From Escherichia coli (GTDB lineage: Bacteria; Pseudomonadota; Gammaproteobacteria; Enterobacterales; Enterobacteriaceae): a stretch of DNA of 64,000 nt. The position numbers and the translations under genes are program-made. The notes under the pieces were generated by a model. The model made no database searches and was not told the DNA's origin. It saw only the letters and a program-made list of their open reading frames with translations. The stretch is from assembly GCF_003334355.1 (NCBI RefSeq), contig NZ_QOWP01000006.1, one strand, 5' to 3'. Position 1 is the stretch's first letter. The number at the start of each line of letters is the position of its first letter. Positions 691 through 20,289 of this stretch are shown here, one piece after another.

Positions 691-1044
691 CTATTCGTCG
701 ATGATTGACTCGAATCCGCCATAGATCATTCGCTTGCCGTCAAACGGCATGGACTCGCCGAACTCTTTCATCCGTGGGTCCGACATCATCTTTTGATTAG
801 CAGCGTCGCGGACCTCTTTTGAAGGGTATTCAATCCAGCTAAAGACAACCTCTTCATTCTCTTCCGCTTTCACCGCCATACGAAAATCGGTCACTTTGCC
901 ATCCGGTACATCGCTGGCCCAGCATTCGACAATACGAAGCGCGCCAAACTCTTTAAACAATGGCGCAGCCTTAGCGGCCATTTCCCGATAGGCATCCTTT
1001 TTATCGGCAGGAACGGCAACCACAAAACCATCAACATACTTCAT
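691..1044 (-). CDS. ybaA: DUF1428-family protein YbaA
   Basis: ORF track 691..1044, 117 aa, MKYVDGFVVAVPADKK...; expected length and neighbourhood. Confidence 0.9.
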   Translation of the reverse strand: MKYVDGFVVAVPADKKDAYREMAAKAAPLFKEFGALRIVECWASDVPDGKVTDFRMAVKAEENEEVVFSWIEYPSKEVRDAANQKMMSDPRMKEFGESMPFDGKRMIYGGFESIIDE

Positions 1045-1154
1045 CAGACATACCTCCGAAGCGTACTGCGCAGCCAGACAATTCTTGCGACGTCAGTTGT
1101 GGTTAAAGTTTAGCCATGTTGGGATTTTTTGACGAAACGGTGGGAGGCAGAAAT

Positions 1155-1268
1155 GGGTGGGGGCCCTGCCAGCTACATCCCGGCACACGCGTCATCTGCC
1201 TTGGCTGCTTCCTTCCGGACCTGACCTGGTAAACAGAGTAGCGTTGCGGGAGAACCAACAGAGCCCCC
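1155..1268 (-). ncRNA. ffs: 4.5S RNA (signal recognition particle RNA)
   Basis: Reverse complement reads GGGGGCTCTGTTGGTTCTCCCGCAACGC...CAGGTCCGGAAGGAAGCAGCC...GGCAGGGCCCCCACCC, 114 nt, matching E. coli 4.5S RNA including the conserved GGAA loop region; lies in the 300-bp ybaA-atl spacer. Confidence 0.95.
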
Positions 1269-16472: not shown

Positions 16473-18827
16473 CTATTTTGCAGTCACAACCTGCATGCCA
16501 GACGGTTCATTTTGCAGCGCCAGAGTCAGAACTTCCTCAATGCGCTTCACAGGATGAATGTCCAGATCGGCAATTACGTTGTCAGGAATCTCTTCCAGAT
16601 CGCGTTTATTTTCGAACGGAATTAACACTGTTTTAATCCCGCCGCGATGCGCTGCCAGGAGTTTTTCTTTCAAACCACCGATCGGCAGTACCTGACCACG
16701 CAGAGTGATCTCACCGGTCATTGCCACATCGGCACGAACCGGGTTACCGGTCAGGCAAGAAACCAGCGCGGTGCACATAGCAATACCGGCACTCGGACCA
16801 TCTTTCGGCGTCGCACCTTCCGGTACGTGGACGTGGATGTCGCGTTTTTCGTAAAAATCAGGGTTGATCCCCAGTTTTTCCGCACGCGCACGAACCACCG
16901 TTAACGCCGCCTGAATGGACTCCTGCATCACTTCGCCGAGCGAACCGGTATAGGTCAGTTTGCCTTTACCCGGAACACATGCGGTTTCAATGGTCAGCAA
17001 GTCACCGCCCACTTCCGTCCACGCCAGACCGGTTACCTGACCGACACGGTTTTCGTTATCCGCGCGACCATAGTCGAAACGCTGAACACCGAGATAGTCA
17101 TGCAGGTTATCGCCGTTAATTTCGATATGTTTTAATGACTTATCGAGCAGTAACTGCTTAACCGCTTTGCGACACAGTTTGGAGATTTCACGCTCCAGAC
17201 CACGCACGCCCGCCTCACGGGTGTAGTAACGAATAATGCCGATAATGGCGCTATCGTCGACGGTCAGCTCACCTTTTTTCAGTGCATTACGTTCAATCTG
17301 CTTCGGCAGCAGGTGACGTTTGGCGATGTTCAGTTTTTCATCTTCGGTATAACCGGAGAGGCGAATCACTTCCATACGATCCAGCAGCGGTGCCGGAATG
17401 TTCATGGAGTTCGACGTCGCGACAAACATCACGTCGCTGAGATCGTAATCCACTTCCAGGTAGTGGTCGCTGAACGCTACGTTCTGCTCTGGATCCAGCA
17501 CTTCAAGCAGTGCAGAGGCCGGATCGCCACGCATGTCAGAAGACATTTTGTCGATCTCATCGAGCAGGAACAGCGGGTTTTTCACGCCCACTTTCGCCAT
17601 TTTCTGGATCAGTTTACCCGGCATAGAACCGATGTAAGTACGGCGGTGACCACGGATTTCCGCTTCATCACGCACGCCGCCCAGCGCCATACGGACATAT
17701 TTACGCCCGGTGGCTTTGGCAATGGACTGACCAAGAGAGGTTTTACCTACCCCCGGCGGCCCTACCAGGCAGAGGATCGGTCCCTTGATTTTGTTGACAC
17801 GGCTTTGAACCGCAAGATACTCAAGGATTCGATCTTTCACGCGCTCCAGACCATAATGGTCGGTATCAAGGATTTCCTGCGCCTGACGCAGGTCTTTTTT
17901 GACCTTGCTACGCGCATTCCACGGCACCTGTACCATCCAGTCGATATAACCACGCACTACGGTCGCTTCTGCCGACATCGGAGACATCATTTTCAGCTTC
18001 TGCAACTCTGCTTCCGCTTTCTCTTTTGCTTCTTTCGGCATCTTCGCCGCGTCGATTTTGCGCTTCAGGGCTTCGTTTTCGTCCGGCGCGTCGTCCATTT
18101 CACCGAGTTCTTTCTGAATAGCTTTCATTTGCTCGTTCAGATAGTACTCACGCTGGGATTTCTCCATCTGCTTTTTAACGCGGTTGCGAATGCGTTTCTC
18201 AACCTGCAGCAGATCGATTTCCGATTCCATCATTGCCATCAGATATTCCAGACGTTCGTTAACGTCGGACATCTCCAGAACGGACTGTTTGTCAGCCAGT
18301 TTCAGCGGCATATGTGCAGCAATGGTATCCGCCAGACGCGCCGGATCGTCGATGCTATTCAACGACGTCAGCACTTCTGGTGGGATTTTTTTGTTCAGCT
18401 TGATGTAGCCTTCGAACTGGCTGATTGCAGTACGCACCAGCACTTCCTGTTCTCGCTCATCAATGGTCGGCGACTCCAGATACTCCGCCTTCGCAGAAAA
18501 GTGTTCGCCATTGTCAGAGAGCGCAGAAATACGCGCGCGCTGTAACCCCTCGACCAGCACTTTGACGGTGCCGTCAGGCAGCTTCAGCATCTGCAATATA
18601 GAGGCCACGGTCCCGACGGTGAAAAGATCGTTTACACCCGGCTCATCCGTTGAAGCTTCTTTCTGCGCGACCAGCATAATTTTTTTATCATGGTCCATCG
18701 CCGCTTCCAGACAACGGATAGATTTTTCCCGCCCGACAAATAAGGGGATGACCATGTGCGGATAAACCACCACATCGCGCAGCGGCAATACGGGGATTTC
18801 AATGCGTTCAGAACGCTCAGGATTCAT
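16473..18827 (-). CDS. lon: ATP-dependent Lon protease
   Basis: ORF track 16473..18872 trimmed to ATG 18827 (784 aa, [25 protein letters not shown]...); Walker [10 protein letters not shown]; protease motif DGPSAG. Confidence 0.97.
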
Positions 18828-18910
18828 AGAGCTCTCTCTTAGTTTAATTTCCGCCAGGTAATCAGATGACACGACTGTGCTTCACGCCATCTATTAACAT
18901 GTACGTCAGT

Positions 18911-18938
18911 ATATGGGGATGTTTCCCCCACATTCAAC
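18911..18938 (-). promoter_or_regulatory. sigma32 heat-shock promoter of lon
   Basis: Minus strand GTTGAAT-13 nt-CCCCATAT matches sigma32 consensus CTTGAAA-N13/14-CCCCATnT; 85-110 bp upstream of lon ATG. Confidence 0.7.
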
Positions 18939-18949
18939 GCCGAGAATAG

Positions 18950-18985
18950 AGGAAAAATTAAAGGGGAGATAAAATCCCCCCTTTT
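18950..18985. terminator. clpX terminator (hairpin with U-tracts on both strands)
   Basis: Plus AAAGGGGAGATAAAATCCCCCCTTTTTGG; minus strand hairpin GGGGGGA-uuuua-UCUCCCC followed by UUUAAUUUUU. Confidence 0.7.
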
Positions 18986-19014
18986 TGGTTAACTAATTGT
19001 ATGGGAATGGTTAA

Positions 19015-20289
19015 TTATTCACCAGATGCCTGTTGCGCTTCCGGCTTGCCATAAATCAGCAACGGTTTGCTTTGACCATCAATTACCGACTCGTCGATAA
19101 CCACTTTTTCGACGTCTTCCATGGACGGCAGATCGTACATGGTATCGAGCAGTGCGGCTTCTACGATGGAACGCAGGCCACGGGCACCGGTTTTACGCGC
19201 CATCGCTTTCTTAGCGATAGCATCCAGCGCCTCGTCACGGAATTCCAGATCCACGCCTTCCAGATTAAACAGCGCCTGATACTGCTTGGTCAGGGCGTTT
19301 TTCGGCTCTTTGAGGATCTGAATCAGAGCTTCTTCGCTCAGTTCATTCAACGTTGCGACAACCGGCAGACGACCAATGAACTCAGGGATCAGACCAAACT
19401 TGATCAGATCTTCCGGTTCAACCTGCGCCAGCAGCTCGCCTTCGCTTGCTTTGTCGGACTTCGCTTTTACCGTCGCGCCAAAACCAATGCCGGAGCCGGT
19501 TTCTACACGATGGGAAATCACTTTATCCAGACCGGCAAACGCACCGCCACAAATAAACAGGATCTTAGAGGTATCAACCTGCAAGAATTCCTGCTGCGGA
19601 TGTTTACGCCCACCTTGCGGTGGAACAGCAGCTACCGTACCTTCGATCAGTTTCAACAGTGCCTGCTGTACGCCTTCACCGGAAACGTCTCGGGTAATGG
19701 ACGGGTTGTCTGACTTACGAGAAATCTTGTCGATTTCATCGATGTAGACAATACCACGCTGTGCTTTCTGGACATCGTAGTCGCATTTCTGCAACAGCTT
19801 CTGAATGATGTTTTCAACGTCTTCACCCACATAACCGGCTTCGGTCAGTGTAGTCGCGTCGGCCATGGTGAACGGAACATCCAGCAGGCGCGCCAGCGTT
19901 TCAGCCAGCAGCGTTTTACCGGAACCGGTCGGACCGATCAGCAGAATGTTACTTTTGCCCAACTCGACGCCATTGCTGGTATCGCCGTTGCGCAGACGTT
20001 TGTAATGGTTGTATACCGCGACCGCCAGCACTTTTTTCGCCTGTTCCTGGCCGATAACGTAATCGTCCAGGTGGTTGCGAATTTCATGCGGCGTCGGTAG
20101 CGCACTGCGTTCACGATGCGGTGCAACTTCTTTAATCTCTTCGCGAATGATGTCGTTACATAAATCAACACATTCGTCGCAGATATACACGGATGGACCG
20201 GCAATCAGCTTGCGCACTTCATGCTGGCTTTTGCCGCAAAAAGAGCAATACAGCAATTTGCCTGAGCCATCTTTGCGTTTATCTGTCAT
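19015..20289 (-). CDS. clpX: ATP-dependent Clp protease ATP-binding subunit ClpX
   Basis: 424 aa; zinc-binding CSFCGK...CDEC; Walker A GPTGSGKT. Confidence 0.98.

Follow-up and report, generated by a model that had tools for sequence, protein, structure and literature searches.

SraA in the clpX-lon spacer of Escherichia coli: an antisense RNA locus lying across the lon heat-shock promoter and the clpX terminator

The spacer between clpX and lon carries the clpX terminator and the sigma32 promoter of lon on one strand and the small RNA locus sraA on the other. This superposition raises the question whether the conservation of the sraA family speaks for a functional small RNA or is owed to the elements that the RNA overlaps. 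We studied the locus in a contiguous stretch of E. coli DNA of 64,000 nucleotides (in the following, the window), which runs in reverse relative to the E. coli K-12 chromosome that it represents; its minus strand therefore carries lon, clpX, clpP, and tig. Subtracting a window coordinate from 477715 gives the corresponding coordinate in NC_000913.3 (designated g). Over the 451 bases around the spacer, the identity to MG1655-type E. coli chromosomes is 100%. Used as a query, these 451 bp had a match in all but one of 5,426 complete E. coli genomes (5,425); among the matching genomes, there were 55 in which no single place covered 80% of the query.

Layout of the clpX-lon spacer

The spacer comprises 187 bp (18828-19014) and has the same length in NC_000913.3 (458701-458887). 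A first-pass annotation, made from the sequence alone, had singled out precisely this interval, and it is indeed exactly the clpX-lon spacer, flanked by the start codon of lon and the stop codon of clpX. The features needed for the following are, in window coordinates:

18827..18825, minus strand: start codon ATG of lon
18828..18900, minus strand: 5' UTR of lon, 73 nt, with the transcription start site (TSS) at 18900
18913..18908, minus strand: sigma70-like TATACT, overlapping the sigma32 -10 region
18918-18911, minus strand: -10 region of the lon promoter, sigma32-type CCCCATAT, invariant in 21 species
18914..18930: TGGGG-ATGTTTC-CCCCA, an inverted repeat of the lon promoter spacer that the Rfam model of SraA folds into the inner helix of hairpin 1
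18937-18932, minus strand: -35 element TTGAAT of the lon promoter (CATTCAA is invariant in alignment A1)
18950..18984, minus strand: intrinsic terminator of clpX, with the stem at 18984..18960 and the U-tract at 18959..18950
18899-18994, plus strand: sraA, Rfam RF02029, 106.7 bits, E = 6.3e-17, model positions 1-95
18937..18959, plus strand: SraA linker, unpaired in the model, whose 3' half is the A-run encoding the clpX U-tract on the other strand
18960..18988, plus strand: reverse face of the hairpin with CCTTTTTGG, the presumed SraA terminator
19015..19017, minus strand: stop codon TAA of clpX

Read on the clpX/lon strand, terminator and promoter are compactly joined in the spacer: the terminator comes first and the lon promoter follows about 20 bp downstream. 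The arms of the terminator hairpin (18960-18970 and 18974-18984) are 11 nt long and 91% complementary. Read on the minus strand, 11 pairs are followed by AATTTTTCCT; read on the plus strand, a 5-pair GC core precedes the tail CCTTTTTGG, this face of the hairpin having CCCCCC and then UUUUU, and an A.C mismatch is located at 18967/18977. A GC-rich hairpin with a T-run past the stem is thus found on both strands, and a palindromic hairpin with an A-run on one side and a T-run on the other could terminate in both directions. The region contains five terminator-like matches, compared to 0.4 expected in shuffled sequences. Published 3' ends of the clpPX transcript are at g458758/9, i.e. at window positions 18957/18956 (Term-seq, g458758; SMRT-Cappable-seq, g458758/9), and in the TRS table, g458754-65 has an entry of about 0.95 under what we took to be termination efficiency. 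The hairpin proposed at 18950-18985 in the first-pass annotation, with U-tracts on both strands, agrees with the arms, the tails, and these 3' ends.

lon is an established heat-shock gene, for which an RpoH-dependent induction by heat would be expected. A pattern search for TTGAA and CCCCAT, allowing a spacing of 12-16 nt, had a unique match in the 64 kb (TTGAA-N14-CCCCAT, 18937..18913), with 0.19 matches expected by chance. A consensus promoter scan additionally gave a sigma70-like pair, TTGAAT-18-TATACT, which overlaps the sigma32 elements. The main TSS of lon has been assigned to U00096.2 position 458039, i.e. window 18900 (Cappable-seq score 188.9; Kim 2012), and to g458812, i.e. window 18903 (SMRT-Cappable-seq), which places it 73-76 nt upstream of the lon ATG. 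Both promoter elements, their spacing in the allowed range, and the mapped TSS downstream bear out the lon sigma32 promoter previously read at 18911-18938. Besides the main site, SMRT-Cappable-seq lists minor upstream TSS of lon-hupB transcripts at g458779/g458724 (window 18936/18991), and Cappable-seq lists weak starts at U00096.2 positions 458004, 458056, 458083, and 458105.

The proximal part of the lon 5' UTR, AGAGCTCTCTCTTAG..CCGCCAGG in plus-strand reading, contains the Shine-Dalgarno sequence and is strongly conserved in A1. A block of about 32 nt adjoining the lon start codon (ACCUGGCGGAAAUUAAACUAAGAGAGAGCUCU, 18828-18859) is near-invariant in Enterobacterales (identity 0.88); its conservation extends further than a Shine-Dalgarno sequence requires, and in Mangrovibacter it is interrupted by a 32-nt palindromic insertion. 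The supplement of Adams 2021 contains two further entries for this strand: a region of (Rho) termination sensitive to bicyclomycin, at g458831 (window 18884) within the lon 5' UTR, and a tag as Rho-associated for the clpX 3' end at g458758. These entries hint that Rho may control the lon leader or the read-through.

SraA on the opposite strand

The covariance model RF02029 matched the plus strand over its full length with 106.7 bits, compared to a curated gathering score of 56 bits. The match is located in the clpX-lon spacer, is antisense to both genes, spans the whole lon promoter and the clpX terminator, and extends beyond the hairpin's plus-strand face by a few nt. Hairpin 1 of SraA is the reverse complement of the lon -10 region and the promoter spacer; hairpin 2 is the clpX terminator seen from its reverse face. 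In the supplement of Adams 2021, the EcoCyc gene sraA (G0-8861) covers g458758 and g458831, which correspond to window positions 18957 and 18884; both are within the spacer, and the gene is on the plus strand. The full-length match and the EcoCyc position and strand support the earlier reading, which had named a SraA locus as reported for this spacer: the match at 18899-18994 falls within 18828-19014. The locus itself is already known, as are the lon promoter and the clpX terminator. The sole other match in the window that reached its gathering score was ffs (4.5S RNA, Bacteria_small_SRP; 1164-1260, minus strand, 68.1 bits). Further Rfam matches in the spacer (DapZ, L20 leader, leuA-Halobacteria) were rejected, as they scored far under the gathering score and merely reflected the terminator hairpin.

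The first-pass annotation had also considered a plus-strand transcript that ends at the clpX hairpin. Position and strand of the covariance-model match are in favor of this proposal, whereas the transcript evidence is thin. A consensus scan of the plus strand between 18600 and 19200 detected no sigma70-like promoter and gave the lon promoter alone. Two plus-strand promoters read by hand were discarded as poor: ATGACA (18866-71) has a spacer of 17-20 nt to ATCTAT/TATTAA, TAACAT (18895-900) is without a -35 element, and neither is conserved in A1. Table S2 of Kim et al. 2012, which covers five methods, has no TSS for sraA, and no 3' end is given under sraA among the entries listed in the thresholded Term-seq and TRS tables; note that SMRT-Cappable-seq size-selects against small RNAs and that the Cappable-seq starts used here are those of the genome plus strand, on which lon lies. 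The feature table of NC_000913.3 has no entry in the spacer, though the ncRNAs ffs and chiX are annotated there, and the RepRanger supplements contain no sraA coordinates. Moreover, the annotated lengths are in conflict: the Klebsiella homologue has 56 nt in the 2012 table (Kim 2012) and 158 nt on a Klebsiella array, and the Rfam family has 95 nt.

The missing TSS, 3' end, and promoter-like site, the missing feature, and the conflicting lengths would all be accounted for if there were no discrete SraA RNA, so that the signal came from degradation fragments or from a heterogeneous read-through in antisense and the gene were a relic of annotation. We consider this very unlikely, as RNA has been reported over sraA and a plausible end exists for it. 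SraA was reportedly detected on Northern blots by Argaman and co-workers in 2001, as an RNA of about 120 nt. RNA-seq gave reads over sraA in all conditions, without differential expression; the plus-strand hairpin followed by U5 could plausibly act as a terminator and thereby define a 3' end. SraA has been named among the small RNAs of E. coli and Salmonella, and a paper of 2025 still counts it among the 88 small RNAs of EcoCyc. The Northern report, the EcoCyc listing, and the RNA-seq reads together indicate that some plus-strand RNA exists.

This RNA might in principle be a message. The Rfam match starts precisely with an ATG (18899), from which a frame of 16 codons stays open up to a TAG (18947-18949) and would encode the peptide MYVSIWGCFPHIQRRE. 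However, there is no upstream Shine-Dalgarno sequence, the stop codon shifts in E. albertii and Citrobacter, and the ATG is missing in Yersinia, Rahnella, and Brenneria. Most codons of MYVSIWGCFPHIQRRE are fixed by the lon -10 and -35 elements, so that codon conservation is uninformative with respect to coding. As start and stop are unconserved outside close relatives, the 16-codon reading frame was rejected, and we consider a peptide-coding role extremely improbable.

Mutant phenotypes have to be read with care at this locus. In Salmonella, a pooled-mutant screen in mice reported a phenotype for sraA, which was not reproduced with the single mutant, and sraA was also flagged by a Tn-seq score. 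Lesions in sraA also disrupt the lon promoter; phenotypes of deletions or insertions are therefore confounded by a loss of lon expression. A natural disruption is present in E. coli BL21(DE3), where an IS4-like element of the IS421 family (IS186) is located between clpX and lon, inside GGGGGAAACATCCCC and between the -35 and -10 elements of lon. The insertion falls in the inverted repeat at window 18914-18930, and the target GGGGGAAACATCCCC is duplicated at both BL21(DE3) junctions (1460-1485 and 2820-2845 of the locus). Since IS186 is inserted inside hairpin 1 of SraA, both the lon promoter and sraA are split in B strains. The lon/IS junction, with the query break at window position 18928, also occurs on the 129-kb plasmid pEcFELIX533.1.

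Conservation across species and between the strands

For the comparison of species, 80 loci were collected via the N-terminus of Lon. The sraA model reached at least its gathering score at the syntenic position and strand in 14 of 20 Enterobacterales loci, and position and strand of the match are kept in 17 other Enterobacterales loci. The scores were 35-37 bits in Photorhabdus and in a single Pantoea symbiont; the loci of Providencia, Arsenophonus, and Budvicia gave no match to the model. Sub-threshold scores of 33-46 bits were obtained for eight loci from Vibrio, Aliivibrio, Enterovibrio, Pseudoalteromonas, and Shewanella (at about 1040-1180, minus strand, upstream of lon). These non-enteric genera share only ATATGGGG..ATTCAA, which belongs to the lon promoter, and the succession of A-run, GC hairpin, and T-run. 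This finding indicates that the layout of a clpX terminator followed by a sigma32 promoter of lon is old in Gammaproteobacteria, and that this layout is what the model recognizes.

In order to resolve conservation within the spacer, it was divided into 12 segments, and the mean pairwise identity was determined for 18 species:

lon -10 region: 1.00
lon -35 element: 0.94
lon Shine-Dalgarno sequence and proximal 5' UTR: 0.88
terminator stem: 0.72
A-run: 0.72
plus-strand T-run: 0.63
lon promoter spacer: 0.58
distal lon 5' UTR: 0.46
SraA linker (18940-18952): 0.37, the lowest of the 12 values, with variable columns

What is conserved are the blocks that function on the clpX/lon strand, and the single-stranded part of SraA is conserved least.

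This distribution bears directly on the idea that SraA acts in trans, as a base-pairing RNA dependent on Hfq or ProQ that uses the linker as its seed. Its generic shape would suit such a role: a single-stranded linker rich in A and G separates the 5' hairpin from a second hairpin, which is a terminator with a U-tail. Moreover, SraA is catalogued with the small RNAs of E. coli and Salmonella. Seeds, however, are normally the best conserved part of such RNAs, whereas the linker shows no conserved seed at an identity of 0.37. In addition, SraA abundance was unchanged (-1.02-fold) in a Klebsiella hfq mutant, overexpression of sraA had no phenotype in biofilm formation, motility, or fimbriae, and our literature search found no SraA target. 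Taken together, a trans-acting SraA appears quite improbable.

If not the sequence, the structure of SraA might be under selection, and it can be asked which strand is favored. To this end, pairing in the Rfam structure was counted on the SraA strand and, for its mirror image, on the clpX/lon strand. In the 18-species set, 86.4% of the cells in the terminator helix were paired on the SraA strand, compared to 90.9% on the clpX strand. Compensatory changes were observed at six pairs of the terminator. Pair 70/80 is instructive: eight A.C mismatches on the SraA strand are eight G.U pairs on the clpX strand, where the series proceeds from G-C via G.U to A-U. The RNAalifold consensus consisted of the terminator alone on either strand, with -12.84 kcal/mol for the clpX strand and -7.12 kcal/mol for the SraA strand.

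A larger set of 65 distinct enterobacterial spacers was obtained by scanning metagenomes with the invariant promoter elements only, followed by a search with our own model R1. Here, the clpX strand had 96.1% of its terminator cells paired, compared to 93.0% for the SraA strand; 36 wobbles on the clpX strand, which are A.C on the SraA strand, stand against 14 G.U pairs on the SraA strand. In the 8-nt tail, the mean number of T was 6.29 on the clpX strand, where 62 of 63 spacers had five or more; on the SraA strand, the mean was 5.44, and 52 of 63 spacers had five or more. The U-tail was the better one on the clpX strand in 42 of the 63 spacers and on the SraA strand in four. Pairing, wobbles, and U-tail thus indicate that the hairpin is primarily the terminator of clpX, although the two-way shape is kept in most species.

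Hairpin 1 has the opposite bias. Its inner helix was paired in 77.2% of the cells on the SraA strand and in 56.3% on the lon strand (65 spacers); in the 18-species set, the values were 85.6% and 54.4%, respectively. Even so, 23% of the cells in the 65 spacers are mismatched on the SraA strand, the perfect GGGG/CCCC repeat occurs in two of the 65 rows and in Escherichia only, the commonest variant, CCCACAC, has a mismatch, and hairpin 1 is absent from the RNAalifold consensus. Note that the 5' arm of hairpin 1 (GGGG) is the invariant -10 region of lon; a compensatory change is therefore impossible, and any pyrimidine in the opposite position scores as a pair. Covariation in hairpin 1 was rejected for these data: the pyrimidine excess in the 3' arm is modest and could be explained by a decay of an ancestral CCCC through transitions. 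As a sign of selection, the excess of pairing on the SraA strand is suggestive at most.

Hairpin 1 is also relevant for a second proposal, namely that SraA is a cis-acting antisense regulator of lon, either because its transcription runs across the promoter or because it pairs with another RNA, namely the start of the lon 5' UTR or a read-through transcript of clpX. The entire lon promoter lies within SraA, and the EcoCyc gene, by reaching window position 18884, extends 17 nt into the lon 5' UTR that begins with the TSS at 18900. The better pairing of hairpin 1 on the SraA strand and the bicyclomycin-sensitive region at g458831 would fit as well. On the other hand, the lon TSS is strong (188.9) and SraA has none by the five methods; with so rare an SraA, much interference is unlikely. 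The distal lon 5' UTR, which would be the site of pairing, is poorly conserved (0.46), and the SraA level did not differ across growth conditions. We therefore regard cis-antisense regulation of lon as unlikely. The more specific claim that SraA is no by-product but an RNA selected for tuning the lon heat-shock promoter or 5' UTR could draw on the G.U-tolerant pairing of hairpin 1 over the lon -10 region and spacer, which is confined to the antisense strand (77% versus 56%), and on the retained T-run; to this claim we attach little credence.

SraA as a probable weak antisense transcript and its relation to known systems

The explanation that we prefer, and hold to be somewhat better than an even bet, is that SraA, an RNA of unproven function, is transcribed weakly in antisense and capped by a bidirectional terminator, and that its family owes its conservation to the lon promoter and the clpX terminator. 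According to this model, SraA would be an RNA of low abundance, which arises from a weak, non-canonical start near or inside the region of the lon TSS and 5' UTR. The RNA would then cross the lon promoter and be halted by the reverse face of the clpX terminator, which may supply its 3' end and, probably, its stability. The main selected role of this reverse face would be to block antisense entry into clpX and to strengthen the clpX terminator by means of the A-tract; it would not be kept mainly for making a trans-acting regulator. Likewise, the conservation of the sraA family would be inherited from the promoter and the terminator on the other strand. The plus-strand T-run (at least five T in 52 of 63 spacers) and the strand bias of hairpin 1 are compatible with some selection on the antisense RNA.

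On this explanation, the sraA family is conserved because it lies over the lon sigma32 promoter and the clpX terminator. A match of the covariance model at this place is consequently no evidence of a functional small RNA, given that conservation stems from the overlapped elements. As the sraA locus, the promoter, and the terminator were known, the value of our analysis as a discovery is small, and what it adds is caution. If it were true that SraA regulates lon, an RNA layer would be added to the control of a central stress protease.

Among known systems, the lon promoter resembles other sigma32 (RpoH) promoters. Their consensus is CTTGAA-N13-15-CCCCATNT, and lon has TTGAAT-N13-CCCCATAT at a proper distance to the TSS; its elements are invariant from Escherichia to Budvicia and recognizable in Vibrio and Shewanella. 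Unlike in a plain sigma32 promoter, the -10 region of lon is overlapped by the sigma70-like TATACT, and the TSS mapped at 37 C (18900) fits TATACT better than the sigma32 -10 region. With bidirectional intrinsic terminators, the hairpin shares the palindromic GC stem, the A-run upstream, the T-run downstream, and the clpX 3' end at the U-tract. It differs from them on the SraA strand, for which the (thresholded) Term-seq tables list no 3' end and where the stem has the A.C mismatch and the U-run is shorter.

With respect to SraA (sraA, psrA3, t15; RF02029, G0-8861), the present locus is not a relative but this very locus, 100% of K-12 type and alike in spacer and strand. Its ends alone are uncertain, as Rfam gives 95 nt, an older annotation 56 nt, and EcoCyc an extent to at least window position 18884. 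With the pervasive or promoter-overlapping antisense transcripts of enteric bacteria, SraA shares a presumably low abundance, the lack of a canonical promoter, and a strong overlapping sense promoter; likewise, its sequence conservation is accounted for by sense-strand elements. In contrast to these transcripts, SraA is a named gene with its own Rfam family, and its 3' end is defined and resembles a terminator.
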